DNA of 64,000 nt from Candidatus Limnocylindrales bacterium (GTDB taxonomy: Bacteria; Chloroflexota; Limnocylindria; Limnocylindrales; CSP1-4): the NCBI GenBank assembly GCA_038214375.1, contig JBBQRX010000007.1, positions 15,717-79,716 on the forward strand, in the 5' to 3' direction. Every line of letters begins with the position of its first letter. Positions within the stretch are counted from its first letter, which is position 1. Of the stretch, positions 1 to 36,559 are shown one piece after another. The translations under genes and the position numbers were made by a program. The notes beneath the pieces were generated by a model. That model worked only from the letters and a program-made list of their open reading frames with translations. It was not told the DNA's origin and did no database searches.

Positions 1-948
1 TCGGGTGGCTCGTCGCTCATCTCCGCGGCCATGCAGGCACTTCCGGTCGGGGTGCCGAAGCTGCTCGTCTCCACCATGGCGTCGGGTGACACGCGGCCGT
101 ATGTCGGGACCGCGGACATCGCGATGATGTACTCGGTGGTGGACATCGCCGGGATCAACGGCATCTCGGAGAAGATCCTGTCCAACGCGGCCGCCGGGAT
201 CGCCGGCATGGCCCTCGCGTCCGCGTCGTTCACGTCAGGGATCGCGGCGAAGCCCCTGATCGGCGCGACGATGTTCGGGGTGACAACACCCTGCGTGACC
301 GCCGCCCGCGAGCTTCTCGAGGAGCGCGGATACGAGGTCCTGGTCTTCCATGCCACCGGCTCCGGCGGCCGTTCGATGGAGGCCCTCATGAAGGCGGGCT
401 TCATCACCGGCTCGCTGGACATCACGACGACCGAGCTCGCGGACGAGCTCGTGGGCGGCGTCCTGTCCGCCGGCCCCGACCGACTGGAGATGGCCGGCTC
501 CCTCGGCATCCCGCAGGTGGTCTCGCTGGGTGCCCTCGACATGGTCAACTTCGGGCCGAAGGAGACGGTTCCCGCGAAGTTCGCGGACCGCAATCTGTAT
601 GTCCACAACGCGACGGTGACGCTGATGCGCACGACCGAGGAGGAGTGCGCCGAGCTCGGCCGGACGATCGCCCGGAAGCTCAATGCCGCGACCGGTCCGC
701 TGACCGTGTTCATCCCGCTCGGCGGGGTCTCGATGATCGATGTGCCGGGCGCCCCGTTCTTCGATGCCGCGGCCGACGCAGCGCTGATCCGCGAGCTGAA
801 GGCCGGTCTCCGGCCCGACGTCGAGGTGGTCGAGATGGCCGCCTCGATCAACGACCCGGCATTCTCGCGCGCGATGGCCGAGCGCATGGATGCGCTCTAC
901 CAGGCCTGGTCCGCACCGAAGCTGGTCACCACAGGAGGACGCGCATGA
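1..948 (+). CDS. UPF0261 family protein (Tm-1-like N-terminal ATP-binding domain homolog); 5' end truncated by window edge
   Basis: ORF 31..948 is in frame from base 1; product is Gly/Ala-rich with a UPF0261-like sequence ([37 protein letters not shown]); stop overlaps the ATG of the next gene (946). Confidence 0.8.
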
Positions 949-1784
949 ACGGGCAGGTAGCGCTGGCGCGGCTGCGCCGAACGATCGCCGAGGGTGGCGT
1001 GATCATGGGCGCGGGCGCCGGGACGGGCCTCTCGGCGAAGTGCGCCGAGGCCGGCGGAGCCGACCTGATCATCATCTACAACTCGGGCCGCTACCGGATG
1101 GCCGGTCGTGGCTCGCTCGCAGGCTGCATGCCCTATGGCGACGCGAACGCGATCGTCGTGGAGATGGCCGGCGAAGTGCTCCCGATCGTGCGCGAGACGC
1201 CGGTCCTGGCCGGGGTCTGCGGAACGGATCCGTTCCGCCTGATGCCGGTCTTCCTCGAGGAGATCAAGCGGATCGGCTTCTCCGGGGTCCAGAACTTCCC
1301 GACGGTCGGGCTGTGCGACGGCCAGTTCCGCCAGAACCTCGAGGAGACCGGGATGGGCTTCGGGCTCGAGGTGGAGATGATCCGGGCGGCCCACGAGGCC
1401 GGTCTCCTCTGCACGCCCTACGTCTTCGACACGGACCAGGCCCGGGCCATGGCCGAGGCCGGCGCCGACGTCGTCGTCGCCCACATGGGCCTGACCACCA
1501 AAGGGCAGATCGGCGCCACCACGGCCCTGACCCTCGAGGCCGCGGCGGTCCGGGTCCAGGAGATCCGCAACGCGGCCGTCGCGATCAAGCCCGACATCAT
1601 CGTGCTCTGCCACGGCGGCCCGATCGCGGAGCCCGACGATGCGCAGTACGTCATCGACCACACGACGGGCGTCGCCGGCTTCTTCGGCGCGTCGAGCATG
1701 GAGCGGCTTCCGACGGAGGTGGCGATCACGGAGAACATGAAGCGCTTCAAGCGGATCACCCGACCGATGGCGGTCGCCGGCTGA
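946..1784 (+). CDS. phosphoenolpyruvate hydrolase-like TIM-barrel protein (Tm-1-like C-terminal domain homolog)
   Basis: ATG at 946 overlaps the upstream stop (ATGA-style coupling); product [60 protein letters not shown]... is typical of the PEP-hydrolase-like fold that partners UPF0261. Confidence 0.8.
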
Positions 1785-1832
1785 CGAGGTCGCCCGGGGC
1801 GGCGACAGACCCCGCAGGAGGAGTCGAACACA

Positions 1833-3605
1833 GTGGCACTCAAGGAAGAAGTCCTGGGCCAGTTCCTCGGGGACGAGAAGTTCCCGGTGACGTGGACGTC
1901 GGACACCGAGAAGCTGCTCTTCTGGGTCTACGACGACCTGCATTGCCCGCACCCGCTGAGCCCGATGTACGAGGACATCGGCGGCTGGTGGCTGTCGTGT
2001 GACCACATGTTCCGCCGATTCGGCACGCCGTTCGCGACGGACTGGATCTACAAGAACGTCAACGGCTACCTGTACACGGCGGCAATCCCGGCCGAGGCCG
2101 GCCTGAAGGTCGACACGCAGGAGTACAACTACTCGACCAGCCCGGTCGTGCCGGAGGATCCCGACTACGCGGCGAAGATCGGGACGTACCTCGGCGCCGT
2201 CCTGCCGACCTACGGCCTCGAGTTCGTGGACTGGTGGCGCGACCGCCTGGTCCCCGAGATGGACCGCAACTTCGCGTACCTCGAGGGGATGCTCGACAAG
2301 CAGGATGAGCTGAACCTCATGCAGCTTGCCTGCCTCTTCGAGGACGCGATCGACGTCCACGATCGCCACTGGAAGATCCACTGGATGCTCAACTTCGCCC
2401 AACTGTCCGCGACGCTCAACCTGCGGGCAGTCATGGAGAAGACGCACGGCGCAATCAACGAGCAGCTCCTGGGGCGCCTCCAGAACTCCGCGAAGGACCG
2501 CAACTGGGATTCGATCGAAGCACTCTGGAAGATGAAGGAGGAGGCGAAGTCCGACCCGGATCTCGCCGCCATCTTCAAGGCCGATACGGCCGGCGAGATC
2601 ATCGTTGCGCTCAAGGCGAGCGAGCGCGGACGGCGCTTCATCGAGGAGCGCGTCGCACCCTACCAGAAGGAGTACGGCTGGCACGCCGTCTGGAGCCACG
2701 AGTTCATCTTCCCGAACGTGGTCGAAGTCATGGAGCCGGTCATCGAGCTCGTCCGCGGCTACATCGAGACCAACTACGACTACCCGAAGACGATCGCCGT
2801 CCTCGCCGCCGACATCAAGGCCGCGGCGACCGAGATCCTCAAAGGCCTCGAGGGCGAGGCGCTCGAGGAGATGCGGGCGGCCAACGAGATCAACCTGCGG
2901 ATGGCCCCGCTCACGCCGGACCACCACTTCTACATCGACCAGGGCGCCAACGCCCACGTCCGCCAGGTCCTCCTCGCGATCGGCCGCAAGCTCGTCGCGA
3001 CGGGCGCACTCGACGCACCCGACGACGTCGTCTACTTCCGGTACAACGAGCTGCGCGTCTTCATGGGCAACCCGGCCGGCATGGATGGCCGGGCGATCGT
3101 GGCGACGGCAAAGGCCGCCCGCGAGAAGGCCTACACGTTCCGGCCGAAGGAATGGGTCGGGACCGTCACGGCGACACAGCTGGCGTTCCCGTACCTGAAC
3201 CTCTGGGGCTTCCCGGACAAGTTCTATCGCAAGGAGTCCACCGTCGCCGGTCAGATCAACGGGATCGGCGGCTCTCCGGGCGTCGTCGAAGGAATTGCTC
3301 GGGTCGTCCTGCACGAGGACCAGTTCGACGACGTCCGCGCGGGCGACATCCTCGTCTGCCAGATGACGAACCCGGCCTGGGTCGTCCTCTTCACCAAGAT
3401 CGTCGGTCTCGTGACCGACGCGGGCGGGACCGTCTCCCACCCGGCCGTCCTCTCCCGCGAGTTCGGCATCCCGGCGGTCGTCGGGACGTCCGTGGCCACC
3501 GAGCAGATCAAGAACGGCGACCGAGTCCGCATCAACGGCACCACGGGCCTCGTCGAGATCCTGAGCACGGCGCCAGCCCGCACGCTCGTCGGCGTTGGGT
3601 CCTGA
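1833..3605 (+). CDS. PEP-utilizing enzyme family protein, phenylphosphate synthase subunit A-like (C-terminal phosphohistidine swivel domain)
   Basis: GTG start at 1833; N-terminal motif LFWVYDDLHCPHPLSP resembles the FWxxDxLHxPxP motif of PpsA/PEP-synthase-like enzymes (from memory); C-terminal mobile domain ...MTNPAWVVLFTKIVGLVTDAGGTVSHPAVLSREFGIPAVVG with catalytic His. Confidence 0.8.
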   Translation: MALKEEVLGQFLGDEKFPVTWTSDTEKLLFWVYDDLHCPHPLSPMYEDIGGWWLSCDHMFRRFGTPFATDWIYKNVNGYLYTAAIPAEAGLKVDTQEYNYSTSPVVPEDPDYAAKIGTYLGAVLPTYGLEFVDWWRDRLVPEMDRNFAYLEGMLDKQDELNLMQLACLFEDAIDVHDRHWKIHWMLNFAQLSATLNLRAVMEKTHGAINEQLLGRLQNSAKDRNWDSIEALWKMKEEAKSDPDLAAIFKADTAGEIIVALKASERGRRFIEERVAPYQKEYGWHAVWSHEFIFPNVVEVMEPVIELVRGYIETNYDYPKTIAVLAADIKAAATEILKGLEGEALEEMRAANEINLRMAPLTPDHHFYIDQGANAHVRQVLLAIGRKLVATGALDAPDDVVYFRYNELRVFMGNPAGMDGRAIVATAKAAREKAYTFRPKEWVGTVTATQLAFPYLNLWGFPDKFYRKESTVAGQINGIGGSPGVVEGIARVVLHEDQFDDVRAGDILVCQMTNPAWVVLFTKIVGLVTDAGGTVSHPAVLSREFGIPAVVGTSVATEQIKNGDRVRINGTTGLVEILSTAPARTLVGVGS

Positions 3606-3614
3606 CCCGGCCAC

Positions 3615-4391
3615 ATGTCCCACGGCGCCGCGATCTCGCGCAGCGTCCTGAGCGATCAGGTCAAGGATCGTCTGCTCCGGGCGATCCTTGACGGTCGCTA
3701 CCCGCCGGGCGCCCGGATCGTCGAGACCCGGGTGGCCCGGGAGCTCGGAACGAGCCAGGCGCCCGTCCGGGAGGCGTTGCGCGACCTCGAGGCGCTCGGG
3801 GTCGTGGAATCCACCGCCTTCCGGGGAGCCCGCGTCCGCCGCCCGTCGGCGGACGAGCTCCTCGAAGGCTTCACCATCCGGGCCGAGCTCGAGTCGCTCG
3901 GCGCGCGCCTGGCGATCGACCATCTGACCGACGAGGACCTGTGCGTCCTTGCCGGGTATGTCGACGAGATGCGACGGGCGGCCGATGACGGGGACCTCCA
4001 CGCGGAGGCCACTGCCGACGCCGCCTTCCACGGCCGGATCGTCGAGCTCGCCGGGAACGCCACCCTGGAGCGGGTCTGGAGGACGCTCGAGCCCTTCTCC
4101 CGCACCTACATCACGATGGTCGTCCCGGGGGTCGACCGGCGTCGCATCGCGGAGCTGCACACCCCGGTCCTCGCCGCACTTCGCCTCCGGGATCCGATCG
4201 CGGTAGACGCGGTCATCCACGAGCATTTCGCCGAGACCGCCGCGATGCTGGCCCGCCTGTGGTCGACCGATGGCTCGGCGGCGCGAGACGGCTCGGCGGC
4301 GACCAGCAGCCCCCCGACGAGCGACGATCCCCGGCTGGGAACGCGTGCTGGGCAGCCGATCCCCGCAACGACCCACGAAAGGACGAGATGA
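3615..4391 (+). CDS. GntR family transcriptional regulator (FadR/FCD subfamily)
   Basis: N-terminal wHTH (RIVETRVARELGTSQAPVREALRDLEALGVV) and C-terminal FCD-like helical domain; same strand as flanking catabolic genes. Confidence 0.85.
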   Translation: MSHGAAISRSVLSDQVKDRLLRAILDGRYPPGARIVETRVARELGTSQAPVREALRDLEALGVVESTAFRGARVRRPSADELLEGFTIRAELESLGARLAIDHLTDEDLCVLAGYVDEMRRAADDGDLHAEATADAAFHGRIVELAGNATLERVWRTLEPFSRTYITMVVPGVDRRRIAELHTPVLAALRLRDPIAVDAVIHEHFAETAAMLARLWSTDGSAARDGSAATSSPPTSDDPRLGTRAGQPIPATTHERTR

Positions 4392-5275
4392 GCGACCAGC
4401 TGCGACTGTCGGAGGAGATGTCGGCCGGCGCCGCCCGCCTGCGGGTGGACGTGTACGGCGGCGAGCCGCGCGAGCACGTCCTCGACGACCTCACCTTCCT
4501 CAACTACCGGCTGGCCGACGTCCGCATCTCGCCGGAGGCGACCCTGCCCGGGCCCGACATCATCTGGCAGCAGGACGGCGAGAAGGCGATCCGGTACGAC
4601 GGCCGGGTGATGCACTTCACGGGCCCGTGGCCGGCGGGGCCCATCCAGAAGGTCGTGGTCGCCATGCTCGCGCTCCGGATGGAGGCAGTCGGGCTGCACC
4701 CCTCCCACAGCGCCGCCGTGCACTACCGCGGCAGGACGCTGCTCTTCCTCGGCGGCGAGTCCAACCACGGCAAGAGCATGGGACTCATCGAGGCCGGAGC
4801 TCGTGGCGCGCTCCAGGTCGCGTCCGAGACCACGATCATCGACGAGGACGGCAGAGCCGCAGCCGGCTCCGTGGACACGTTCCTCGTGAAGCGCACCGAA
4901 GGGACGGAGCGGTCCGACAAGGCCGCGCCGAACAAGGGCGTGGAGAAGTTCTGGGGAGCCATGCCGTCCTGGGGCATGTACGAGGGCACGCCGAACATCG
5001 ACCTCGTGATCGTCCCGGCGATCGATGGCAACTTCGACCCGGCCACCAACGAGCTCATCCCGTTCGAGCGCGAGTTCCAGTTCCTGCACTCCCTGCAGAA
5101 CTACTTCCTCACCAACGAGCTGCTGGCCCCCGGCCACGTGATGCCGATGGTGGACAACGACGCCCTCCGCGCGAAGCGGGCGGATTTCGTGAGCCGCTTC
5201 TGTGAGCGTCCCTTCTACTTCATCCGGGCAGCCACCCCGCAGGTGCTCCTGGACGAAGTCGACGAAATCCTGTAG
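4388..5275 (+). CDS. HPr kinase-like P-loop protein (hypothetical)
   Basis: ATG 4388 overlaps GntR stop (ATGA); motif HYRGRTLLFLGGESNHGKSMGLIEAGARGALQVASETTIIDEDG matches the HprK C-terminal kinase-domain pattern (G-x-S-x-x-GKS ... DD/DE). Confidence 0.6.
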   Translation: MSDQLRLSEEMSAGAARLRVDVYGGEPREHVLDDLTFLNYRLADVRISPEATLPGPDIIWQQDGEKAIRYDGRVMHFTGPWPAGPIQKVVVAMLALRMEAVGLHPSHSAAVHYRGRTLLFLGGESNHGKSMGLIEAGARGALQVASETTIIDEDGRAAAGSVDTFLVKRTEGTERSDKAAPNKGVEKFWGAMPSWGMYEGTPNIDLVIVPAIDGNFDPATNELIPFEREFQFLHSLQNYFLTNELLAPGHVMPMVDNDALRAKRADFVSRFCERPFYFIRAATPQVLLDEVDEIL

Positions 5276-5292: not shown

Positions 5293-6153
5293 ATGCACAC
5301 GTTCTCCTACGCACGGCCGGAGGCGCTGGCCGAGGCGGAGGCCATCCTCGCGACACACGGGCCGGATGCCCGCGTCCTTGCCGGGGGCACCGATCTCGTC
5401 ATCCGGCTGCGCGATGGCACGGCCCGGCCGGGCATCGTGGTCGACATCAAGCGGATCCCCGAGCTGCGTCCCTCGATCCGGGAGGAGGCCGGCGTCCTCG
5501 TGATCAGCGCCGGAACGGTCATGACCGACATCGCTGCCGACGAGCGCGTGCGCCGCTGGTTCCCGGCTTTGGCGGAGGGGGCGGCGGTGGTCGGATCCGT
5601 CCAGATCAGGAACCGGGCCACGCTTGCTGGCAACGTGTGCAACGCCTCGCCCGCCGCCGACACGGCCCCCGCGCTCCTCGTGTACGGCGCCCGGGTGGTC
5701 GCCCAGGGGCAGGGCGGGACCCGACGCATCCCGATCGACGCGTTCTTCGTGCGGTCCGGCGTCACGACGCTCGCCCGCGGTGAGCTCGTCACGGCGATCG
5801 AGCTGAGGCTTCCGGCCGGCCCGATGGGCGCGGTCCACGTCCGGCGGACCCGCCGGCGCGGGCACGACCTCGCCTCGGTGACACTCTGCTGCGGCGTGGA
5901 CGGGTCCGGCGTCACGCGGCTTGCGTACGGCAGCGTTGGGCCGCGGCCCGTGCTTTTCGTCGATGAGAGCGGCGTGCTCGCCGACCCGGCCGCCCCGGAC
6001 GAGGCCAGGGCTCCCATCTTCGAGCGGATGTTCGCCGACGCCAGCCCGTCCCCGCGCTCCCTGCGGGCGAGCCCCGAATACCGCCTGGCAATGCTCCGCG
6101 TCCTGGGGACGCGGGCGCTGCGGACCGCGATCGAACGGCTGGCCCTCGCATGA
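5293..6153 (+). CDS. xanthine dehydrogenase family FAD-binding subunit (CoxM/CutM-like medium subunit)
   Basis: FAD-binding molybdopterin-dehydrogenase motifs (AGGTDLV..., IRNRATLAGNVCNASPAAD); precedes the 2Fe-2S and Mo subunits. Confidence 0.9.
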   Translation: MHTFSYARPEALAEAEAILATHGPDARVLAGGTDLVIRLRDGTARPGIVVDIKRIPELRPSIREEAGVLVISAGTVMTDIAADERVRRWFPALAEGAAVVGSVQIRNRATLAGNVCNASPAADTAPALLVYGARVVAQGQGGTRRIPIDAFFVRSGVTTLARGELVTAIELRLPAGPMGAVHVRRTRRRGHDLASVTLCCGVDGSGVTRLAYGSVGPRPVLFVDESGVLADPAAPDEARAPIFERMFADASPSPRSLRASPEYRLAMLRVLGTRALRTAIERLALA

Positions 6154-6635
6154 GCACCCGGGTCGAGCCGATCGCGATCGAGATGACGGTCAACGGGCGG
6201 TTACGGGCGCTCGAGGTGGCCCCCCACCACACGCTGCTCGACATGCTGCGCGACGACCTGGGACTGACCGGCGCGAAGGAGTGCTGCCTGGTCGGCGAGT
6301 GCGGGGCGTGCACGGTGATCGTCGACGGGCGCACGGTCGACTCCTGCCTGGTGCTCGCCGTCGAGGCCGATGGCGCGGCGATCACGACCGTCGAGGGCCT
6401 CGCGGCGGACGGCGTTCTGAGCCCGCTCCAGCAGGCATTCCTCGACAGGGGAGCCGTGCAGTGTGGCTTCTGCATCCCCGGTCAGCTCGTCGCCGCCCAG
6501 GCGCTCCTCGCGGGCAACCCGCACCCATCCGTGGCGGAGATCCAGGAGGGCCTGGCGGGCAACCTGTGCCGCTGCGGCTGCTACGGGCAGATCACCGACG
6601 CGGTCCTCGCGACCGCCGAGGCGGACGTGCGATGA
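6150..6635 (+). CDS. (2Fe-2S)-binding small subunit of xanthine dehydrogenase family enzyme
   Basis: Two Cys clusters (CCLVGECGACTV and CGFCIPGQ ... CRCGCY); ATG 6150 overlaps upstream stop. Confidence 0.9.
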   Translation: MSTRVEPIAIEMTVNGRLRALEVAPHHTLLDMLRDDLGLTGAKECCLVGECGACTVIVDGRTVDSCLVLAVEADGAAITTVEGLAADGVLSPLQQAFLDRGAVQCGFCIPGQLVAAQALLAGNPHPSVAEIQEGLAGNLCRCGCYGQITDAVLATAEADVR

Positions 6636-8878
6636 GCACGCATCGGATCGGCGACTCTCCCAACCGCGTCGGCGGAGTCGGCCGGGTGACCGGCAGCCAG
6701 CAGTACGCGGCGGACATCCGGCTTGCGGACGTCCTCGAGGCCAGGCTCGTCACGCTCGACTGCGCGCGGGCCCGGATCATCTCGATCGATACGATGGCCG
6801 CCGAGCTGGTCCCGGGCGTGCGCCTCGTCATGACTGCAGCCGACCTGCCGCAGCCGGTGCCGCGCTTCGGTCCGCAGTTTGCGGATCGCCCGGTCATCGC
6901 GGTCGGCGAGACGAAGTACCACGGCGAGCCGGTCGCGATCGTCGCCGCCGACTCGAAGGATGCGGCGGAGGAGGCCGCGGGTCTCGTCCGGGTCGAGTAC
7001 GAGGAGCTGCCCGCGGTCTTCACGCTGGCGGCGGCGCTCGACCCGGCCGCCCCGCTGGTCCAGGACCCGGCGCTTCGCCGCAACGACCGGCTCGCATCCA
7101 CGAACGTCCTCCGCGAGCACCCCATCGGCTGGGGCGACGTGGACGCCGCGACGGCAGACGTTGTCGTCGAGAACACGTACACCTTCCCGATGGTCACCCA
7201 TTTCGCGATCGAGCCGCACACATTCATGGCCGCGCCCGACGGCGACGGGATCGCCGTCTGGAGCACGATCCAGCACCCCAACTGGCTCCAGAAGGTGATC
7301 GCGAACATCCTCGGGCTCCCCCTTTCGAAGGTGCGCGTCCTCGCGCCGGATCCCGGGGGTGGGTTTGGCGGCAAGCAGCACGCCAAGCTCGAGCCGCTCG
7401 TCGCGTTCGCGGCCCTGCGGGCCGGGCGCCCCGTGCGTCTCGTCCTGACCCTCGAGCAGACGTTCCAGGCGGTGCGCCGGGCGTCGTGCGAGGTCCGCGT
7501 CCGGACCGGGGTCAACCGCGACGGCGGGCTGGTCTTCGAGGACATCGAGGCCGACTACCTCATCGGCGCCTACGCGGACATCGCGGACCGCGTCGTCGGC
7601 AAGGGCAGCTACCCGGCCGCCGGCCCGTACAACGTTCCGGCCGTTCGGATCATGGCCCGCAGCGTGCTGTCCCACACGGTGCCGTCCACCGCCTTCCGCG
7701 GCTTCGGCAACCCGCAGGTCAACTGGGCAGTGGAGTCGAACCTCGACGATGCGGCGCGCGCGATCGGGATGGATCGCCTCGCGATCCGCCTGCGCAATCT
7801 CGCGAGAAAGGGCGACGCGTTCATCCCGTTCGACACGCCGGCCGACGGCGACTGGGAGCAGACCGTCCGACGGGCGGCGGAGCTCATCGGCTGGGATGCG
7901 CCGCTGCCGCCCGGGCACGGGCGGGGGATCGCCATCGGGATCAAGTCCGGCCCCACCACGGGCCTCTCGTATTCGACCGTCCGGCTCCTCGGCGACGGGA
8001 GCGTGATCGTCTTCGCCGGCACGTCGGACATGGGCCAGGGCGCCCGGACGGTCTTCGCGCAGATCGCGGCCCAGGAGCTCGGCGCGCCGCTCGACTGGGT
8101 CACGGTCGTCATGGGCGACACGGCGATCGTCCCGTACGACCAGCAGACATCGGCGAGCCGCTCCACGGTCCTGATGGGCAACTCGGTGCTGCAGGCGTGC
8201 CGCTCGATCCAGGCGCAGCTGCGCGCGATGGCCGCCCGTCTTCACGGCCTCGACGCGTCGCAGGTGAGCGTGGACAGCGGAGTCGTCCAACTCCCCGGCC
8301 GCGAGCTCTCCGTGCTCGAGGTGCTCGAGCCGGGCCTCGGCCCTCTCGGTGGCGAGCTGACCGGCAACGGCGAGGTCCGCAAGGATGCCGAGCCCGATCA
8401 CCCGCTCAGCGGCAGCGCGGCGTTCTTCGAGTTCAACTGCACGGCCGTCGAGGCGGCGGTGGACGAGGAGACGGGCGACATCGTCATCGCGAAGCACGTG
8501 ACGGTCTCCGACGTGGGGAAGGCTCTCAACCCGCTCCAGGTGGCGATGCAGGACGAGGGTGCCGCCATCCAGGGCCTGGGCCATACGCTCATGGAGCAGT
8601 ACGTCTTCGACGAGACGGGCCGAATCCGCAATCTGGGCGCGATCGACTACCGGATCCCGACCAGCATGGACCTGCCGCTCGAGCTGCGCAGCGCCATCGT
8701 CGAGAACGAGGACGGCCCCGGGCCGTACGGCTCGAAGGGGATGAGCGAGGGCGCGCTGCTGTGCGTGGCGTCCGCCGTCGGGGCGGCCGTCCGGGATGCC
8801 ACCGGGGTCGCGATCCGGGACCTGCCGCTGACGCCGGAACGGGTCTGGCGCGCCCTCCGCGATCGGCCGACGCCATGA
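6632..8878 (+). CDS. xanthine dehydrogenase family molybdopterin-binding large subunit
   Basis: ATG 6632 overlaps small-subunit stop; GGGFGGK and AFRGFGNPQ motifs typical of XDH/aldehyde-oxidoreductase Mo subunits; no form-I CODH AYXCSFR loop; the N-terminal 5921..6631 part of the long ORF is antisense-style artefact. Confidence 0.9.
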   Translation: MSTHRIGDSPNRVGGVGRVTGSQQYAADIRLADVLEARLVTLDCARARIISIDTMAAELVPGVRLVMTAADLPQPVPRFGPQFADRPVIAVGETKYHGEPVAIVAADSKDAAEEAAGLVRVEYEELPAVFTLAAALDPAAPLVQDPALRRNDRLASTNVLREHPIGWGDVDAATADVVVENTYTFPMVTHFAIEPHTFMAAPDGDGIAVWSTIQHPNWLQKVIANILGLPLSKVRVLAPDPGGGFGGKQHAKLEPLVAFAALRAGRPVRLVLTLEQTFQAVRRASCEVRVRTGVNRDGGLVFEDIEADYLIGAYADIADRVVGKGSYPAAGPYNVPAVRIMARSVLSHTVPSTAFRGFGNPQVNWAVESNLDDAARAIGMDRLAIRLRNLARKGDAFIPFDTPADGDWEQTVRRAAELIGWDAPLPPGHGRGIAIGIKSGPTTGLSYSTVRLLGDGSVIVFAGTSDMGQGARTVFAQIAAQELGAPLDWVTVVMGDTAIVPYDQQTSASRSTVLMGNSVLQACRSIQAQLRAMAARLHGLDASQVSVDSGVVQLPGRELSVLEVLEPGLGPLGGELTGNGEVRKDAEPDHPLSGSAAFFEFNCTAVEAAVDEETGDIVIAKHVTVSDVGKALNPLQVAMQDEGAAIQGLGHTLMEQYVFDETGRIRNLGAIDYRIPTSMDLPLELRSAIVENEDGPGPYGSKGMSEGALLCVASAVGAAVRDATGVAIRDLPLTPERVWRALRDRPTP

Positions 8879-9789
8879 GCCACGAGGAGGGCGCGGGAAT
8901 GGCCAGGCCGTCCGGGATCGGACCGATCGGCGAGCTGCCGCCCGCACAGGTCGTGAAGGCCGCGAGCCTCGTCCGCGACGGCCGAATGGTCTCGCTCGCG
9001 GCGGTGCGCTACCCCGGCATGCCCCTCTTCCCCGGGCACCCGCCGTTCCAGGTGCTCAACTACCGGACCCCGCGCGGGATTCGCGTGACCGGCGCGAAAC
9101 CGTGGGGGCCGGTCAACGACGCGGGCCTCGGCTACATGGCCGAGTACGTGATGGCGACCTCGCACTCCGGCGCGCACATGGACGCGCTCGCTCACATGAC
9201 CGTGGGCGACGACATGCACTGGTACGGCGGCGGGAACGCGGACGAGCACCTGACGGATTTCGGCCCGACGCACCTCGACGCGTCGCAGATGCCCCCGTTC
9301 TTCACCCGGGGCGTCCTGCTGGACGTTGCCGGGCACCGCGGGGTCGACTGCCTCCCCGAGGGCTCGCCGATCAATGCCGACGAGATGGAAGCGGTCTGCC
9401 TCGCGCAGGGCGTGTCCGTGGGGCCGTGGGACGTCGTCCTGGTCCGGACCGGCTACATGGGCCTCTGGCCCGACGTCGAGCGGATGGCCGCCCACAAGAC
9501 CGCCGGGCCGGATCTCTCGGCGGCCCGCTGGCTGCTGGAGCGCGGCGTCGTCGCGACCGGCAGCGACACGGAGACCTACGAGGTCCAGCCGACTCCCGAC
9601 CCGGGACCTACCGGCAACCCCCAGCCGGTCCACACGCTGCTGCTCATCCAGAACGCCATCTACCTCATGGAGAGCCTCGACCTCGAGGAGCTGGCGCGCG
9701 TGCGCGCCTACGAGTTCCTCTTCGTCGCCCTCCCCGTCAAGATCCGCGGCGCCACCGGGTCGATGGTCGATCCCGTCGCCGTCCTCTGA
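8875..9789 (+). CDS. cyclase family protein (kynurenine formamidase-like metal-dependent hydrolase)
   Basis: ATG 8875 overlaps large-subunit stop (ATGA); HSGAHMDALAHM and GSDTETYE motifs of the putative cyclase fold. Confidence 0.85.
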   Translation: MSHEEGAGMARPSGIGPIGELPPAQVVKAASLVRDGRMVSLAAVRYPGMPLFPGHPPFQVLNYRTPRGIRVTGAKPWGPVNDAGLGYMAEYVMATSHSGAHMDALAHMTVGDDMHWYGGGNADEHLTDFGPTHLDASQMPPFFTRGVLLDVAGHRGVDCLPEGSPINADEMEAVCLAQGVSVGPWDVVLVRTGYMGLWPDVERMAAHKTAGPDLSAARWLLERGVVATGSDTETYEVQPTPDPGPTGNPQPVHTLLLIQNAIYLMESLDLEELARVRAYEFLFVALPVKIRGATGSMVDPVAVL

Positions 9790-9815
9790 AGGAGCTCGTC
9801 AGCGTGCCCGCGACC

Positions 9816-10859
9816 ATGGAGGCGCTCGTCGTTCTCGAGCCGAACCGGCTCGAGATCCAGGAAGTTCCCGTCCCGACGGCCGGCCCGAACGAGGTTCTGG
9901 CCCGCGTGCGCGCCGTCTCCATCTGCGGGACCGATGCGCACATCCTGCGCGGCGACTACCCGGGCTTCTGGCCCCCCGCGTTCCCGTTCATCCCGGGCCA
10001 CGAGTGGGCCGGCGAGATCGCCGCGCTCGGGCCCGGCGCGGAGCTGTTCGGATGGGCGGTCGGCGACCGCGTCGCGGGCACCTCGCACGACGCGTGCGGC
10101 GTCTGCCAGAAGTGCGTCGAGGGCCGCTACAACCTGTGCGAGAACTATGGGCGGCCGGGACTCCACAAGCAGTACGGCCACAGCGTCCAGGGCGCCGACG
10201 CGACGTACGTCGTGCAGGGCGTCAAGACGATCTTCCCGCTCCCCGACGCGATCTCGTTCGACGAGGGCGCCGTCATCGACCCGGCCTCCATCGCCCTCCA
10301 CGTCGCGAATCGCGGCAATATCGCTCCCGGCGACACGGTCGCGATCACGGGCGCCGGCGCCATCGGGCTGCTCGGCGGGGACGCGGCACGCATCCGGGGA
10401 GCCGGTCGCGTCATCCTCGTCGGCCGCGGAGGTCGCCTTCTGAAGGCGGCGGCGATGGGCTTCGAGACCGTGGACACGTCCGCCGGCGATCCGGTCCCCA
10501 TAGTGCGCGAGATGACCGGGGGCCTCGGCGTCGACGTCGTCCTCGAGTGCGCCGGTGTTCCCGTCGCCGTGCAGTGGGCGCTCGGCATGCTTCGGCGCGG
10601 CGGCCGGTGTGCCGCCGTCGGGATCCCGACCGAGGGCGTCGAGATCGCCATGCAGCGGCTGGTCCTCGATGAGCTGGAGCTGGTCGGGTCCCGTGCCTCC
10701 GCGGGCGAGATGCGGCGCGTGATGCCGCTCGTCGAGCAGGGCCGGATGCGGGTTCGCGAGGTCATGACCCATCGCTTCGCGCTCGCCGACTATGCGCAGG
10801 CGATCGCCACCTTCAACGACCCGACGAGCGGCGCGATCAAGATCATCGTCGCGCCGTGA
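9816..10859 (+). CDS. zinc-dependent alcohol dehydrogenase (MDR family)
   Basis: ICGTDAHIL, GHEWAGEI, CGVCQKCVEGRYNLC (structural Zn) and GAGAIGLL Rossmann motifs; AAGGAG RBS at 9789-9794; alternative GTG start at 9804. Confidence 0.85.
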   Translation: MEALVVLEPNRLEIQEVPVPTAGPNEVLARVRAVSICGTDAHILRGDYPGFWPPAFPFIPGHEWAGEIAALGPGAELFGWAVGDRVAGTSHDACGVCQKCVEGRYNLCENYGRPGLHKQYGHSVQGADATYVVQGVKTIFPLPDAISFDEGAVIDPASIALHVANRGNIAPGDTVAITGAGAIGLLGGDAARIRGAGRVILVGRGGRLLKAAAMGFETVDTSAGDPVPIVREMTGGLGVDVVLECAGVPVAVQWALGMLRRGGRCAAVGIPTEGVEIAMQRLVLDELELVGSRASAGEMRRVMPLVEQGRMRVREVMTHRFALADYAQAIATFNDPTSGAIKIIVAP

Positions 10860-10914
10860 CCTGCGCCCGTGCCGCGCGGAGCGGCCGGTCGGCTCGGCGC
10901 CCCAGGAGAGCCCC

Positions 10915-13089
10915 GTGACCTACGTCTTCGACTTCGACCACCGCCACGACCTGCCGTTCGACGAGGTCAAGCGACTCGTGGGCGGCAAGGCCGCGAGCCT
11001 CGCGGTGATGGCGGTCGACCTCGGCCTGCCGGTTCCACCGGCCTTCACGATCACGACGACGGCCTGCAACGAGTACCTGGCGAACGGCTGGCCGGACGGG
11101 CTGGACGCCGATCTTCGCGAGCACATGGCGCGGATCGAGCGGCTCGTCGGCCGGCGCTTCGGCGGCCCGGAGGATCCGCTCCTGGTCAGCGTCCGGTCCG
11201 GCGCGCCGGTCTCGATGCCGGGCATGATGGACACGATCCTCAACCTGGGGCTGAACGGCGGGACGACCGGCGGGCTCGCGGCCGCGTCGGGCAGCGAGGC
11301 ATTCGCGGCGAACTGCCGCGCGAGGTTCGAGGCGACGTTCCGCGACATCGTGGGCGTCGACGACGTGCCCGAGGATCCGTGGGCCCAGCTGCGGGCAGCG
11401 ATCGAGGCCGTCTTCCGCTCCTGGAACAGCGACCGGGCCCGCACGTACCGCGAGCGGGAGGGGATCGCCGACGACCTGGGCACGGCGGTGACCGTGCAGG
11501 CGATGGTCTTCGGCAACCGCAGCGTCGACTCCGGGACGGGCGTCCTGTTCACGCGGAACCCGGCCACCGGCGAACCCGCCCTCTACGGCGACGTCCTGTT
11601 CAACGCCCAGGGCGAGGACGTCGTGGCCGGGACGCACCGGACCGAGCCGATCGCCATCCTCGACGAGCGCATGCCCGCTGTCGGGCGCGAGCTCCACGAG
11701 TACGCGCTCCGTCTCGAGCGCCACCACCGGGACCTGTGTGATATCGAGTTCACGATCGAGCACGGCAGGCTCTGGATGCTGCAGTGCCGTGTCGGCAAGC
11801 GAAGCCCGCAGGCCGCGCTCCGGATCGCGGTCGACATGGCCCGCGACGCGGACTTCCCCCTGGAGCGGGTGGAGGCCGTGCGCAGGGTCGCCGGTCTCCT
11901 TGCGAGCCCACCGATGATCGCGACCGCGCGGGCCGGCAACGAACCCGTCCTCGCGACGGGCCTGCCGGCGTCGCCGGGAATCGCCTGCGGCGAGATCGCG
12001 ACCACGCCCGATGCCGCGATCGCCGTCGCCGAGGCCGGCCGGCGGGCGATCCTCGTCCGTGCCGAGACGTCCCCGGACGACGTCCATGGGATGGCCCGGT
12101 CGGCCGGGATCCTCACCTCCTGCGGCGGCCTTGCGAGCCACGCCGCGGTCGTTGCGCGCGGCTGGGGAATCCCCGCGGTGGTGGGTGCAGCCGCGGTCCA
12201 CGTCTCGGGCGACGGCGTCACGATCGGCGGGCGAACGTTCCGCGCGGGCGACACGATCTCGATCGACGGGGCTACCGGCGAGATCTTCGCCGGGGCGATC
12301 GCCGGAGCACGGGTGGTCGTCCCCGAGGTGGCGACGCTGCTGGCGTGGGCGGCCGAGCTCGGGATCCCGATCGGGGACGCCGATGCGCCCGCCGGTGCCG
12401 CCCCGGGCGCGGCTGCCCCGGGCGCGGCTGCCACGGCCGGACCGCCGGCGTCATCCGGCGGCGCGGCGCCGGCAACCGCAGATGATGTCCTGCGCGCGCT
12501 GATCGTGAAGGGCTACGCACTGCCCGAGAGCCTGGCGACGGCGCTCTCATCGACCGCCGCGGAGATGGCGGCTGCGCTGGACTGCCTCGTCGCCGACGGC
12601 CTCGCCGAGAAGGCCGCCGGCTCGTTTCGGCTCACGGTCGGCGGGAAGGCCGCCGGACGGGAGCGGATCGCGGCCGACACCGAGCGCTGGGGAGTCGCCA
12701 ATGCGGCGGCCGCGCTCGATGCGTTCGTGATCCTCGACACGCGCATGAAGCAGACCGCCACTGCGTGGCAGATGCGCGAGGTGGACGGCACCGCGACGTT
12801 CAACGATCACGCGGATGCGGCCTACGACGCGAAGGTGCTCCGAGACCTCGACTCGCTGCACGCGGACGCGTCCGCGTGGCTCCGCCCGTTGGTGCCGCAC
12901 CTCCCCCGGCTCGCGTCGTACGTCGAGCGCCTGGACCGCGCAGCGGCCGCGGCTCGGGGCGGGGACGGCCGCTTCGTCGCGTCACCCCGTGTCGACAGCT
13001 ACCACGGCGCCTGGTTCGAGCTGCACGAGGACTTGATCCTGCTCGCGGGCCGCAGCCGGGCCGACGAGGTCGCCGCCGGGCGCGCCTGA
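10915..13089 (+). CDS. PPDK-like dikinase: PEP/pyruvate-binding ATP-grasp N-domain plus phosphohistidine swivel domain, with a novel C-terminal region instead of the catalytic TIM barrel
   Basis: GTG 10915 preceded by AGGAGAG; the N-terminal 340 aa align by eye to the pyruvate phosphate dikinase N-terminus (GGKAASLAVM, RSGAPVSMPGMMDTILNLGLN, TRNPATGE); central TSCGGLASHAAVVARGWGIPAVVG His domain; residues after about 500 are Ala/Pro linker then an unrelated about 230 aa region. Confidence 0.8.
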   Translation: MTYVFDFDHRHDLPFDEVKRLVGGKAASLAVMAVDLGLPVPPAFTITTTACNEYLANGWPDGLDADLREHMARIERLVGRRFGGPEDPLLVSVRSGAPVSMPGMMDTILNLGLNGGTTGGLAAASGSEAFAANCRARFEATFRDIVGVDDVPEDPWAQLRAAIEAVFRSWNSDRARTYREREGIADDLGTAVTVQAMVFGNRSVDSGTGVLFTRNPATGEPALYGDVLFNAQGEDVVAGTHRTEPIAILDERMPAVGRELHEYALRLERHHRDLCDIEFTIEHGRLWMLQCRVGKRSPQAALRIAVDMARDADFPLERVEAVRRVAGLLASPPMIATARAGNEPVLATGLPASPGIACGEIATTPDAAIAVAEAGRRAILVRAETSPDDVHGMARSAGILTSCGGLASHAAVVARGWGIPAVVGAAAVHVSGDGVTIGGRTFRAGDTISIDGATGEIFAGAIAGARVVVPEVATLLAWAAELGIPIGDADAPAGAAPGAAAPGAAATAGPPASSGGAAPATADDVLRALIVKGYALPESLATALSSTAAEMAAALDCLVADGLAEKAAGSFRLTVGGKAAGRERIAADTERWGVANAAAALDAFVILDTRMKQTATAWQMREVDGTATFNDHADAAYDAKVLRDLDSLHADASAWLRPLVPHLPRLASYVERLDRAAAAARGGDGRFVASPRVDSYHGAWFELHEDLILLAGRSRADEVAAGRA

Positions 13090-33622: not shown

Positions 33623-34390
33623 TCAGCGCGCCTCGAAGGAGCGTTTCGAGAGGCCGTAGAAGTAGCCTTCGATGGTGAAGTCGGGCGAATCGTCGGGCTT
33701 CGCGACCGCACCGAGCGTCACGAAGATCGGCGCGAAATGCTCGACGGTCGGGTGCGCATAGGGCATGCCGGGCGCCTTCTCGCGGAACGCGAAGAGCGTG
33801 TCGAGATCGCCCCGGTTGAGCGCCTCGGTCGCCCACTGGTCGAAGTCGATCGACCACTGCGGCGCGCCCGGCTTGCCCAGGAAGTAGTCGTGGACGAACG
33901 GAAGGCCATGGGTCAGGAACCCGCTGCCCACGATCAGGACGCCCTCGTCTCGCAGCGGCGCGAGGCGTCGCCCGACCTCGAAGAGGTGGCGTGGGTCGAG
34001 GTCCGGCATCGACATCTGGAGGACCGGGATGTCAGCTCCCGGGTACATCGCCTTGAGGGGCACCCAGGCGCCGTGATCGAGCCCGCGCGTCTCGCGATCC
34101 AGGACAGGCTCGCTTGCGGGCATAAGCGCCTTCACCCGTGCGGCAAGGTCCGGCGCGCCGGGCGCGTCGTACGTCATCCGGTAGTAGTGCTCGGGGAAGC
34201 CATAGAAGTCGTACACCAGCGGCGCCCGATGCGTGGCGCTCAGCGCGATCGGCGCGGTCTGCCAGTGGGCGCTGACGATGAGGATGGCGCTCGGCCGGGG
34301 GAGCGCTGCGCCCCATGCCCCGAGCTCGCCCATCCACTCCTCGTCCTCGAGAAGCGGCGGGGCGCCGTGGCCAAGGTAGATCGCCGGCAT
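33623..34390 (-). CDS. 4,5-DOPA dioxygenase extradiol-like protein (YgiD family class III extradiol dioxygenase)
   Basis: PAIYLGHGAP ... SAHW ... HGLP motifs; start placed at MPAIY because the 48 aa upstream of it are Arg/Pro-rich and non-protein-like. Confidence 0.8.
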   Translation of the reverse strand: MPAIYLGHGAPPLLEDEEWMGELGAWGAALPRPSAILIVSAHWQTAPIALSATHRAPLVYDFYGFPEHYYRMTYDAPGAPDLAARVKALMPASEPVLDRETRGLDHGAWVPLKAMYPGADIPVLQMSMPDLDPRHLFEVGRRLAPLRDEGVLIVGSGFLTHGLPFVHDYFLGKPGAPQWSIDFDQWATEALNRGDLDTLFAFREKAPGMPYAHPTVEHFAPIFVTLGAVAKPDDSPDFTIEGYFYGLSKRSFEAR

Positions 34391-34782
34391 GGGTCGAGCT
34401 GCGGCTGTGCCGGATGCGGTGACGGCGGTCCGCCCGGTCGCAGGATCGCCCGCTGCCGAGTTCGTCGGATCCTGGCTGGGTTGCATGCAGGCCATTCTGG
34501 ACTCGACCGCTCTGCGGTGCGCCGGCCGGCGCACCCACGTCGCTCGCTCGTCACGCGTTCGTCTCCCCGGGCAGAGGGACGCCGGACCTGGTCGAACGCG
34601 CGGGGTGGCGCTTCGCGGGCGGGTCGAAGTCGAGCCGGACGAGCAGGCGCGGGAGCCCGGCGCTCAGGCACCAGCAGCCGCGATCCCCGTCGTCACCCAG
34701 CAACGCATCACGTCCGGCCAGCGATCCGGGGTCGCCAGATGGACGTCGATGGCAGGCGCGCGTCTCACAAAAACCGCTCGCG

Positions 34783-35748
34783 TCAGGCGTCAGGCCAGAG
34801 ATCCGTGCTCAGGTACTTGAGCCCGGAGTCCGCAAGGACGACCGCCACCGTGCCGCCGACGTGGGCTTCCCCGAGAAGCCGAAGGGCAGCAGCGACCACC
34901 GCGCCCGATGAGAACCCAGCGAAGATGCCCTCCTCGTGCGCCAGTCGTCGTGCGACATCGATCGCCTCGGCATCGCTCACGGCGAGGTAGCCATCGACGG
35001 CGATCCCGTCAAGGAGGGGCAGGTCGGTCATCGAGTATCCACCGCCCTGGATCCGGTGGTTCGCGTTCACGACCGGCTCCCCAGCAAGCACGGCCGCGTC
35101 GCGCGGCTCAACGATGTAACCGGCGATTGCTGCGCGACGCCGCTTCAGGGTGCCGGCGATCCCTGCGTACGTCCCGCCCGTGCCCAGGAATTCACAGAAG
35201 GCATCGATCTCGCCGTTCGTCTGTGACCAGAGCTCAGAGGCGGTCTGCTCGTGGGCGCGCGCGGCCGACGGATTGGCGAACTGGTCTGCCCGAAACGCGT
35301 GTAGCTCGTCCGTCAGCTCCTGCGCACGGAGCTTGACGAGTGCGAGGTCGGCGCCGCTCACCTGCCCGCCGATGGAACCCTCGGCCTGCGGTACGAGCAC
35401 CACCTTCGCGCCCAGGGCCCGCATCATTCGAGCGCGCTCCCGGCTGTTGCCCTCCGACATGACAGCCACGAACGGATGACCGCGGACGGCGCAGACGATG
35501 GCGAGACCAGTGCCCGTGTTCCCGCTCGTCAGCTCGACGACGGTCTGGCCGGGTCGAAGCCGGCCGGTCCCGATTGCGTCGTCCACGATCTGGCGTGCGA
35601 TGCGGTCCTTCTTGGAGAACCCCGGGTTCAGGTACTCGAGCTTGGCGACGATCCGGCCTGAGAGAGACCCGGTGAGTCGAGCGAGCTCGACGGCCGGCGT
35701 CTCGCCGATCGCGTCCACGACCGACGGGAGAACGCTCTGGCTCCGCAT
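34783..35748 (-). CDS. cysK: cysteine synthase family protein (PLP-dependent)
   Basis: LNPGFSKKDR PLP-Lys motif, TSGNTG, GTGGT. Confidence 0.85.
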   Translation of the reverse strand: MRSQSVLPSVVDAIGETPAVELARLTGSLSGRIVAKLEYLNPGFSKKDRIARQIVDDAIGTGRLRPGQTVVELTSGNTGTGLAIVCAVRGHPFVAVMSEGNSRERARMMRALGAKVVLVPQAEGSIGGQVSGADLALVKLRAQELTDELHAFRADQFANPSAARAHEQTASELWSQTNGEIDAFCEFLGTGGTYAGIAGTLKRRRAAIAGYIVEPRDAAVLAGEPVVNANHRIQGGGYSMTDLPLLDGIAVDGYLAVSDAEAIDVARRLAHEEGIFAGFSSGAVVAAALRLLGEAHVGGTVAVVLADSGLKYLSTDLWPDA

Positions 35749-35954
35749 TCGCAGCCTGCCTATTGCCCGGTCCCGTTCATGGTCGAGCCCTCCGCCGAGT
35801 CGAGATCCTCACGCGTGATCGCCGCACGTGAAGTCTCCATGGAATGCGGGAGTTTCGTACAGGGAACCGCGGCCGGTGGTGTCCCGAAAGGCCCGCAGGA
35901 GCTTGTGCGCCCTCACGCCGGATCGGTCGCGCGAAATCGGCCCACAGCGGCATC

Positions 35955-36559
35955 CTATTCGCTGAAACGCTCTTCCTTCCACGGATCGGCGTCGTTGTTG
36001 TAGCCGTAGCGCTCCCAGAAGCCGCGGATGTCGTGGTCCAGGAACTCCAGGCCGCGGATCCACTTGGCGCTCTTCCAGAAGTAGCGCTTCGGCACCACGA
36101 GGCGCAGCGGGTAGCCGTGCTCGGGGTCGAGCGGCTTGCCCTCGTAGCGGTCCGCGAGGAGGACGTCCGCGTCGTCGAGGATCTCGAGCGGCATGTTGGT
36201 GGTGTAGCCCTGCTCGCAGTGCGCGAGCACGTGCGTCGCCTCGGGCCGGACCTGGGCGAGCTCCAGGATGGTTCGGATCGGCACGCCCTCCCAGGATGTG
36301 TCGAGCTTCGACCAGCGCGTCACGCAGTGGATGTCGGCGGTGACCTCCGAGCGCGGCAGCGCCTGGAACTGCTCCCAGGTGAACGTGAGCGGCGCACCGA
36401 CCAGCCCATAGACGCGGAGATCCCAGGTCGCGAGGTCCGCCTTCGGGACGCTGCCGTAGTGGAGGACGGGGAACTTCTCGGTCAGGTATTGCCCCGGCGG
36501 GATTCGCTCGGCGGTCCCAGGATCCTGTCCGCGCGCGCCAAAGAGTCGGTCGAACATGG
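35955..36559 (-). CDS. sulfite oxidase-like molybdopterin-dependent oxidoreductase (YedY/MsrP-like catalytic subunit)
   Basis: HCVTRWS motif (Mo-ligating Cys); GGAGAAC RBS 4 nt before ATG 36559; the longer ORF N-terminus is Arg-rich junk. Confidence 0.8.

Follow-up and report, generated by a model that had tools for sequence, protein, structure and literature searches.

What might a stand-alone P-loop protein contribute to a catabolic operon that also encodes the parts of a dikinase? The question is raised by a stretch of 64,000 nucleotides of Candidatus Limnocylindrales bacterium (contig JBBQRX010000007.1, positions 15,717 to 79,716), hereafter the window, in which the open reading frame (ORF) at 4388-5275 on the forward strand encodes a protein of 295 residues, referred to here as the P-loop protein. 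An initial annotation, made from the sequence, had seen in it the kinase core of HPr kinase/phosphorylase (HprK/P). The best reading is now that the protein constitutes a sequence family of its own, a compact and unannotated new branch of the group formed by phosphoenolpyruvate carboxykinase (PEPCK) and HprK. As to function, we put at roughly one in two the probability that it is catalytically competent and serves a two-component dikinase of the HpeHI/PpsAB/CreHI type as accessory enzyme, working by a PEPCK-like phosphoryl transfer.

Family and fold group of the P-loop protein

The gene is judged to be real. Its codon-position G+C pattern is that of a real gene, its ATG at 4388 overlaps the TGA of the preceding GntR/FCD regulator gene as ATGA, an arrangement also seen in most of 80 related Limnocylindrales loci, and an AGGA lies at 4380-4383, four bases 5' of the ATG. 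A GTG further upstream, at 4259, was dismissed as the start because the homologues are 295-298 residues long with a conserved N-terminus. The window has a G+C content of 71.7%, and ORF lists made from it are therefore rich in artefacts, such as the antisense ORF of 1159 codons at 897-4376 (-), which crosses four real genes and lacks the codon-position bias of coding sequence.

Searches with the single protein against Pfam, NCBIfam and the PDB sequences returned no match. The HprK/P kinase model, PF07475 (Hpr_kinase_C), did not match the window protein at E ≤ 0.1, and a threshold as lax as E ≤ 10 brought no match to it or to the 22 family members searched; the NCBIfam models, including those related to HprK, were likewise silent at E ≤ 10, and PF03618 (DUF299, PDRP/PSRP) gave no Pfam match. 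The only faint Pfam signal was to PF01293 (PEPCK_ATP), in 2 of the 22 members (best E 0.038) and not in the window protein itself. A profile of the family, run against the PDB sequences, placed the ATP-dependent PEPCK of Thermus thermophilus at the top (E 0.027, over the P-loop and the segment just before it), and hhalign and hmmsearch both aligned residues 74-140 with residues 198-264 of Escherichia coli PckA (hhalign E 0.0025). A global pairwise alignment with PckA outside residues 74-140 contained order-breaking matches, for example of GTER to GTER, and was discarded.

The predicted structures point in the same direction. Confident AlphaFold2 (AF2) models were obtained for the window protein (predicted local distance difference test, pLDDT, 89.7; predicted template modelling score 0.88) and for its homologue from Thermococcus sibiricus (WP_015849898.1, 38% identical; pLDDT 88.7). 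In a Foldseek search of the PDB with the window model, the first 36 matches were all ATP-PEPCKs (E 1e-7 to 7.5e-6, probability 1.00), and the ranking was the same for the T. sibiricus model, the top 35-36 matches of the two being ATP-PEPCKs with E up to 8e-6. The alignments with ATP-PEPCK extend over 340-370 columns, that is, over the whole length and both domains, at a template modelling score (TM) normalised to the query of only 0.41-0.48 and a root-mean-square deviation of 8-11 Å; the modest TM and large deviation indicate a strongly reduced, re-oriented two-domain version rather than an orthologue of PEPCK. HprK/P appeared from rank 37 onwards, alongside GTP-PEPCKs (best E 4e-4 for the window model, 7e-4 for the T. 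sibiricus model), and its structures 1KO7, 1KNX and 1KKL (E 4e-4 to 1e-2) were aligned over 114-191 columns of the C-terminal domain only, with a TM normalised to the query of about 0.24. No unrelated fold occurred in the top 50 for either model. By these models, the P-loop protein is closer to ATP-dependent PEPCK than to HprK/P, and its likeness to the latter would be one of fold group only. The PEPCK/HprK topology group is described as holding only three families (ECOD summary quoted in PMC7758060), beside which the P-loop protein looks like a further one.

The initial annotation is thus confirmed in what it observed and partly supported in what it made of it. The GESNHGKS and IDEDG segments that it singled out are present (G123-S130 and residues 151-155), and the product is, as it held, a stand-alone P-loop protein whose predicted fold falls within the HprK/PEPCK group; superfamily and context were right. 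The nearest family was not, since PF07475 finds no kinase core in it, Foldseek favours ATP-PEPCK (E 1e-7) over HprK/P (E 4e-4), and the weak sequence matches also lead to PEPCK.

A large protein collection holds 2811 homologues, labelled 'hypothetical' wherever they are named; among the best 120, identity to the window protein is 83-93%. When 1.84 billion cluster representatives were searched exhaustively with phmmer, only 178 clusters matched, mostly fragments, with some seven full-length diverged clusters at 37-54% identity; with so few matches, the family is isolated in sequence space. Its bulk lies in the Limnocylindrales and other Chloroflexota, and further members occur in Gaiellaceae, in a Nitrososphaerales archaeon, in metagenome-assembled genomes (MAGs) of WOR-3 and Thermotogota, in a subsurface lineage, and in cultured Thermococcus (T. 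sibiricus, T. argininiproducens, strains EP1 and MV5). A relative is present in 431 of 185,579 GTDB species genomes, and the 80 best GTDB matches are all soil or freshwater MAGs of Limnocylindrales-type Chloroflexota. One Chloroflexota MAG (MFD04716.bin.3.834) carries two copies of the whole cluster, on contigs CAWBGT010000005.1 (L012) and CAWBGT010000027.1 (L017), and both copies of the protein are 88% identical to that of the window. Five database entries (P0139, P0160, P0167, P0225 and P0253) were rejected as domain fusions, being Arg-rich frameshift chimeras of the regulator and the P-loop protein; such chimeric public entries, of 360-540 residues, could mislead domain-fusion analyses.

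The gene is under strong constraint. Among the genes of the cluster it ranks first in conservation in 40 of the 80 Limnocylindrales loci, with a mean identity of 84% across them, as against 69-80% for the dikinase subunits, the GntR regulator and the three Cox-like subunits; the cyclase, alcohol dehydrogenase and PEP_hydrolase genes reach 82-85%.

The candidate active site

Invariance was judged on sequences of 37-93% identity, with a diverse set of 14, drawn from Chloroflexota, Actinomycetota, Nitrososphaerales and Thermococcus. Residues D57, G79, G84, H107, Y113, G123, E124, N126, G128, K129, M131, E135, R139, E147, G160, R169, G172, E174, R175, D177, D213, E227, Q231, R261, R264, R280, Q285 and D289 are invariant in this range. 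The P-loop itself reads G-E-x-N-H-G-K-[ST]-M, position 130 being Ser or Thr, down to 37% identity; because it is invariant across the range of the family, the motif is a functional element under conservation rather than a chance likeness. Of the two outcomes that would have refuted the initial annotation, a predicted fold unlike HprK or homologues that lack the GKS motif, neither was observed.

The segment upstream of the P-loop carries a PEPCK-type motif. PckA binds Mn2+ through K213, H232 and D269 (E. coli numbering), and the profile alignments place K88 and H107 of the P-loop protein on the first two. As for the third, the window model runs from strand to P-loop, helix and a second strand (142-145), which is followed by S146 and E147, the latter an invariant acidic residue at the strand tip. 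An acidic residue at this beta2-Asp position characterises HprK and PEPCK (PMC7758060). From its place in the model, we infer that E147 corresponds to this position (D178/D179 in HprK/P, D268/D269 in PEPCK), and an ungapped match of D-E-D-G with D-D-D-G, made by eye, likewise sets E147 on D269. A hydrophobic strand further on, L-V-I-x-P-x-I-D-G-N-F-D, carries the invariant D213 and resembles, again by eye, V-I-F-L-T-A-D-A-F-G of PckA.

Two further elements are conserved. Residues 161-180, with the motif K-R-x-x-G-T-E-R-x-D-K, have the lowest pLDDT (blocks of 62-75) and no secondary structure in both models, and probably form a mobile catalytic or lid loop. The loop of HprK/P bears the signature [ILM]-E-[IV]-R-G-[ILV]-G; E-[IV]-R-G is absent from the P-loop protein, in which the corresponding loop reads K-R-T-E-G-T-E-R-S-D-K. 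In the N-terminal domain, D57 is invariant and R19, D21, Y40, R41 and W60 are conserved in at least 90%, which fits a substrate cleft between the domains, as in PEPCK.

Genomic neighbourhood in bacteria and archaea

The P-loop protein lies in a catabolic operon and is flanked, as the initial annotation pointed out, by two phosphohistidine enzymes, whose PEP-utilizers domains are encoded at 1833-3605 and 10792-13089; the linkage holds across bacteria and archaea. Linkage to genes for an Rph_4th plus PEP-utilizers protein and for a PPDK_N protein is conserved across distant taxa, with 79 of 88 loci and five distant lineages as the basis. The former, here called HpeH-like, combines in the window a rifampin-phosphotransferase-like substrate-binding part with a C-terminal swivel His domain (motif GGTVSHPA). 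It is found no more than 4 kb from the gene of the P-loop protein in Limnocylindrales, Gaiellaceae, Nitrososphaerales, Thermococcus and the subsurface lineage, and is the one constant partner, since it occurs in the neighbourhoods of all five. Usual further neighbours are a PPDK_N ATP-grasp protein, a cyclase-family hydrolase and an oxidoreductase with molybdenum or, in Thermococcus, tungsten.

In the Limnocylindrales-type loci (80 in number), the order HpeH-like, GntR, P-loop protein, CoxM, CoxS, CoxL is almost constant; the cyclase, zinc-dependent alcohol dehydrogenase and PPDK-like genes are frequent, and the UPF0261 and PEP_hydrolase genes variable. Gaiellaceae have HpeH-like, GntR, cyclase, PPDK_N and P-loop protein, followed by TAL, CoxLSM and an ABC transporter, the PPDK_N stop overlapping the start of the P-loop gene. 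In Nitrososphaerales, the order is SCP2, P-loop protein, PPDK_N, beside CoxM, CoxS, HpeH-like and CoxL, so that in two lineages (this and Gaiellaceae) the PPDK_N gene abuts or overlaps that of the P-loop protein. The subsurface lineage shows HMGL-like, HpeH-like, P-loop protein, cupin and cyclase, with the P-loop gene directly 3' of the HpeH-like gene and no PPDK_N gene within 10 kb. Thermococcus sibiricus has the series PPDK_N, ThiS, cyclase, AFOR, Fer4, AFOR, DUF169, HMGL-like, P-loop protein, cupin, Ldh, UPF0261 and HpeH-like; in its genome (CP001463.1; L093:3693-7940), the place of the three-subunit molybdenum hydroxylase is taken by two tungsten oxidoreductases of the AFOR family that flank a 4Fe-4S protein, which suggests that the redox step is an oxidation that either the Mo or the W enzyme class can perform. 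An HMGL-like gene lies 5' of the P-loop gene in Thermococcus, where the two abut, and in the subsurface lineage, where the HpeH-like gene stands between them, and a small cupin gene lies directly 3' in both (L093:8744-11307; L094:6764-11368 and L007:245-4849); neither neighbour is present in the window. The cyclase gene recurs in the clusters of Gaiellaceae, Thermococcus, the subsurface lineage and Thermomicrobium roseum.

The coupling to the GntR gene, to which the initial annotation drew attention, stands as far as the ATGA overlap in this lineage is concerned, but it is lineage-specific: adjacency to GntR is absent outside Limnocylindrales and Gaiellaceae, and the constant neighbour is the HpeH-like subunit. 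Its statement that nothing nearby belongs to a phosphotransferase system (PTS) or to a pathway for ribosomally synthesized and post-translationally modified peptides (RiPPs) extends to the full window, in which the annotated ORFs include no PTS, HPr, lasso-peptide or other RiPP gene and the six frames contain no HPr-type GxHxRP motif.

Upstream in the window, the UPF0261 and PEP_hydrolase genes open the operon, all on one strand, and with UPF0261 and the dikinase the cluster has two different kinds of putative small-molecule kinase. Downstream, the three-subunit molybdenum hydroxylase (5293-8878) is kept 3' of the P-loop gene in 75-83 of the 88 loci. The PPDK-like protein consists of a PPDK_N ATP-grasp part and a swivel His domain (GGLASHAA), with no PEP/pyruvate TIM barrel, followed by an Ala/Pro-rich linker and about 250 residues of C-terminal sequence without assignment; its true start is probably later than the annotated one, because an Arg-rich stretch of some 40 codons follows the ATG. 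For the dikinase, the protein probably provides the ATP-grasp activity, and, as it also carries a swivel domain, the cluster has two swivel-His proteins. Elsewhere, the window holds unrelated genes at 33623-36767 (-), 44362-46173 (+) and 52298-58691 (-), among them those for a LigB-type extradiol dioxygenase, a PALP enzyme, a protein with a sulfite-oxidase-type Mo domain, an ATP-dependent DNA ligase, and two heavy-metal P-type ATPases flanking a DsbD_2/HMA protein.

Table 1. Features of the P-loop protein and its operon; positions are those of the window, and residue numbers those of the P-loop protein.
Feature	Position	Strand	Basis or remark
UPF0261 protein, partial (MarK family)	1-948	+	Pfam; in 36/88 loci
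PEP_hydrolase-like TIM barrel	951-1784	+	Pfam; in 29/88 loci
HpeH/PpsA/CreH-like dikinase subunit, 590 aa	1833-3605	+	PF00391; homologues PF27448 Rph_4th + PF00391
GntR/FCD regulator	3615-4391	+	PF00392, PF07729; at about -750 nt in 79/88 loci
P-loop protein, predicted compact member of the PEPCK/HprK superfamily	4388-5275	+	translation, homologues, AF2, Foldseek
N-terminal beta-rich domain, residues 1-78			
P-loop domain, residues 79-295			
W81			aligns with PckA W206
P82			aligns with PckA Y207; variable in the family
PEPCK-type motif 5' of the P-loop, K88 to H107	4649-4708	+	profile alignments to PckA
K88	4649-4651	+	aligns with PckA K213; Lys in 12/14 diverse sequences, Arg in 2/14
H107	4706-4708	+	aligns with PckA H232; invariant
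Walker A / P-loop, G123-E-S-N-H-G-K129-S130	4754-4777	+	aligns with PckA 248-GLSGTGKT-255 (hhalign, hmmsearch)
K129			aligns with PckA K254; invariant
S/T130			aligns with PckA T255
E147, invariant acidic residue at the tip of the strand after the P-loop helix	4826-4828	+	secondary structure of the model
Flexible loop, residues 161-180	4868-4927	+	invariant R169, G172, E174, R175, D177
CoxM-like flavin (FAD) subunit	5293-6153	+	Pfam
CoxS-like 2Fe-2S subunit	6150-6635	+	Pfam
CoxL-like molybdenum cofactor subunit	6632-8878	+	Pfam
Cyclase-family hydrolase (PF04199)	about 8890-9789	+	
Zn-dependent alcohol dehydrogenase	about 9810-10859	+	
PPDK-like protein, 765 aa	10792-13089	+	PF01326, PF00391; in 57/88 loci

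Proposed role, rival explanations and known systems

HpeHI, AcvAB, PpsAB and CreHI are two-component ATP-dependent dikinases, in which phenolic hydroxyls are phosphorylated by way of a phosphohistidine on a swivel domain, and HpeH on its own moves phosphate back and forth between aryl phosphates (PMC12167813). In Ensifer adhaerens, the 3-hydroxypyridine molybdenum hydroxylase works only when the PPDK-like and PEP-utilizer genes are co-expressed; a GntR regulator gene is adjacent, and orthologous clusters have been reported in Gaiella (bioRxiv 10.1101/2020.01.08.898148). The UPF0261 family (MarK) consists of ATP-dependent aryl kinases, and the known pathways require a later dephosphorylating enzyme, AcvF/HpeD (PMC12624787). 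The dikinase-initiated phenol and acetovanillone pathways go on to carboxylation (bioRxiv 10.1101/2020.01.08.898148, PMC12167813, PMC12624787). No PEPCK/HprK-like component figures in what these papers describe of HpeHI/AcvAB, PpsAB, CreHI or 3hpd, and literature searches on the cluster, on mini-PEPCKs and on follow-ups to 3hpd yielded no description of the P-loop protein.

An accessory role beside such a dikinase, with a PEPCK-like phosphoryl transfer, could be envisaged as follows. The two-component dikinase would phosphorylate a hydroxyl of a catabolic intermediate that is also acted on by the Mo (or W) oxidoreductase. In the P-loop protein, a nucleotide, inorganic phosphate (Pi) or pyrophosphate (PPi) would sit in the P-loop (K129, S/T130), a divalent metal would be held by H107, E147 and K88, and an anionic small molecule would bind in the inter-domain cleft beneath the mobile Arg-rich loop (R169, R175), with the phosphoryl group passing between nucleotide and small molecule. 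Most probably, the aryl- or enol-phosphate product of the dikinase would be the donor and ADP (or Pi) the acceptor, so that the phosphate 'handle' would be removed and part of the two ATP equivalents spent by the dikinase regained. A bolder version is tentative and distinctly less probable: that this is a fourth, miniature PEPCK/HprK family, which removes phosphate in an ADP- (or Pi-) dependent manner from aryl-, lactim- or enol-phosphates made by the two-component dikinase, possibly with carboxylation, in a reaction that has no described counterpart.

Were this so, aerobic Chloroflexota and anaerobic Thermococcus would regain one ATP (or PPi) of the two spent, and the known scheme of aromatic catabolism, 'phosphorylate, then transform', would acquire a third step, 'recover'. 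With the catalytic core retained in so compact a form, a fourth family would mark the smallest version of the PEPCK/HprK fold and extend its known chemistry. Pathways for phenolics and hydroxypyridines that start with a dikinase (PpsAB, CreHI, HpeHI/AcvAB, 3hpd orf9/10) are only now being worked out, and a conserved P-loop phosphotransferase in such clusters would offer a testable answer to why two ATP equivalents are paid for a transient phosphate. Experiments are feasible, because cultured Thermococcus species whose genomes are complete carry members of the family.

Several points weigh against the proposed accessory role. The sequence similarity to PEPCK lies below every curated threshold, and direction of transfer and identity of the substrate are pure inference. 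The counterpart of PckA Tyr207 is variable (P82) and K88 is replaced by Arg in 2 of 14 sequences, so that the PEPCK substrate/CO2 site is not preserved as such; counterparts of PckA R65 and R333 were not identified, the pairwise alignment being unreliable outside residues 74-140. In addition, tblastn found no homologue among the plasmids of PLSDB. The 3hpd genes of Ensifer are sufficient on their own in a heterologous host (bioRxiv 10.1101/2020.01.08.898148), so that a related cluster works without the P-loop protein. Finally, Thermomicrobium roseum has a related cluster (MarK-like, PEP hydrolase, GntR, cyclase, PPDK_N, CoxM, HpeH-like, CoxL and CoxS) on its megaplasmid (NC_011961.1), in which the slot between PPDK_N and CoxM is taken by an unrelated DUF4202 protein of 205 residues (WP_012642976.1; L090:9112-9729) with an H..HD-like motif. 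The slot protein was ruled out as a homologue (hhalign probability 0.2%) and may be a non-homologous replacement.

Among the alternatives, the one that survives best, although we consider it unlikely, is that of a protein kinase/phosphorylase resembling HprK/P or PDRP/PSRP, which would phosphorylate, and by phosphorolysis dephosphorylate, a Ser or Thr of the swivel protein (or of GntR) and so switch the dikinase pathway on and off, or would charge the HpeH-like subunit directly from ATP. HprK/P belongs to the same fold group and is matched by both models (E 4e-4 and 7e-4), but over 114-190 columns at a TM of about 0.24, whereas PEPCK is matched by the whole protein; PF07475 and the HprK signature motif are both absent, and the conserved N-terminal domain is PEPCK-like rather than MurE-like. 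The constant neighbour is a phosphocarrier-type swivel-domain protein, and PPDK and PEP synthase are under the control of bifunctional kinase/pyrophosphorylases that act beside the catalytic His. The partners, however, share the swivel motif GG-x-x-[SA]-H and do not conserve the regulatory Thr of the PPDK/PEP synthase motif GGxT[SC]H, and a PDRP-like regulator is down-weighted on that account; before the catalytic His, T. roseum, where the P-loop protein is absent, has Ser and the subsurface locus L094, where it is present, has Ala, and this residue shows no correlation with the protein. That the P-loop gene in the subsurface lineage directly follows the HpeH-like gene, with PPDK_N missing from the surrounding 10 kb, suggests that its product might charge this subunit. 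Translational coupling to GntR in Limnocylindrales would suit a switch, but is offset by the lack of GntR adjacency beyond that order and Gaiellaceae.

Clearly less probable still is a true carboxykinase, in which an enol- or aryl-phosphate would pass its phosphoryl group to ADP in a step coupled to carboxylation of the enolate or phenolate, or the reverse, a decarboxylating phosphorylation, in effect an ATP-conserving analogue of phenylphosphate carboxylase. PEPCK is the top structural match over both domains, the counterpart of H232 (H107) and the putative one of D269 (E147) are invariant, that of K213 is Lys in 12 of 14 sequences, and two known dikinase pathways, those of phenol and acetovanillone, proceed to carboxylation. 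Tyr207 forms part of the CO2/substrate site of PckA, and its position is not conserved here; moreover, the P-loop protein is half the size of PEPCK, with no R65 counterpart identified. The HMGL-like neighbours, whose family includes oxaloacetate decarboxylase and carboxyltransferase domains, speak for carboxylation in Thermococcus and the subsurface lineage, but are absent from the window and from three of the five lineages. Last and least probable is a subunit that would bind nucleotide or phosphate but catalyse nothing, acting as a sensor, scaffold or chaperone for a complex of dikinase and Mo enzyme. This would explain why related systems that have been characterised or cultured can do without the protein and why an unrelated small protein fills its slot in T. 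roseum, but it agrees poorly with residues of catalytic type (P-loop Lys, beta2 acidic residue, His and the Arg/Glu loop) that are invariant in bacteria and archaea and with the most conserved gene of the cluster.

The P-loop protein may be compared with the known systems from its predicted fold outwards. Like ATP-PEPCK (PckA; PF01293; 1AQ2, 1OEN, 1J3B, 1YTM), the top whole-chain match for both models, the P-loop protein has in order G-x-W-x-x-G-x-x-x-K, H-x-S-A, GK[ST] and an acidic residue at the beta2 tip. Unlike ATP-PEPCK, which has about 540 residues and serves central gluconeogenesis, it has 295 residues, falls below the Pfam threshold, does not conserve Tyr207, has Glu at the putative position of D269, bears an unusual invariant E-x-N-H in its P-loop, and has a pathway-specific genomic role. 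With HprK/P (PF07475; 1KO7, 1KNX, 1KKL), it shares a Walker A motif GxxxxGKS (GxSGxGKS in HprK/P itself), a His some 22 residues before the P-loop Lys and, presumably, an acidic residue at the beta2 tip, but it has S-E where HprK/P has D-D, no MurE-like N-terminal domain, and aligns by the C-terminal domain only. PDRP/PSRP (DUF299) and the HprK-like lasso-peptide kinases are P-loop kinases/phosphorylases that act on proteins or peptides, from which the P-loop protein differs in that it has no family match, no conserved Thr in its partners and no RiPP context.

At the level of the pathway, HpeHI/AcvAB, PpsAB (phenylphosphate synthase), CreHI and 3hpd orf9/orf10 are homologous to the neighbours of the P-loop protein, which is itself homologous to no described component of the HpeHI, PpsAB, CreHI or 3hpd systems; the Ensifer 3hpd cluster, like the window, combines a dikinase pair, a Mo hydroxylase and a GntR regulator. 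AcvF/HpeD and CreD are pathway phosphatases that remove the aryl phosphate. Under the proposed accessory role, a possible functional analogy lies with these, in that phosphate would be removed from a pathway intermediate. The folds are unrelated, and the phosphatases work by hydrolysis, whereas transfer to ADP or Pi would be more plausible for a P-loop enzyme.

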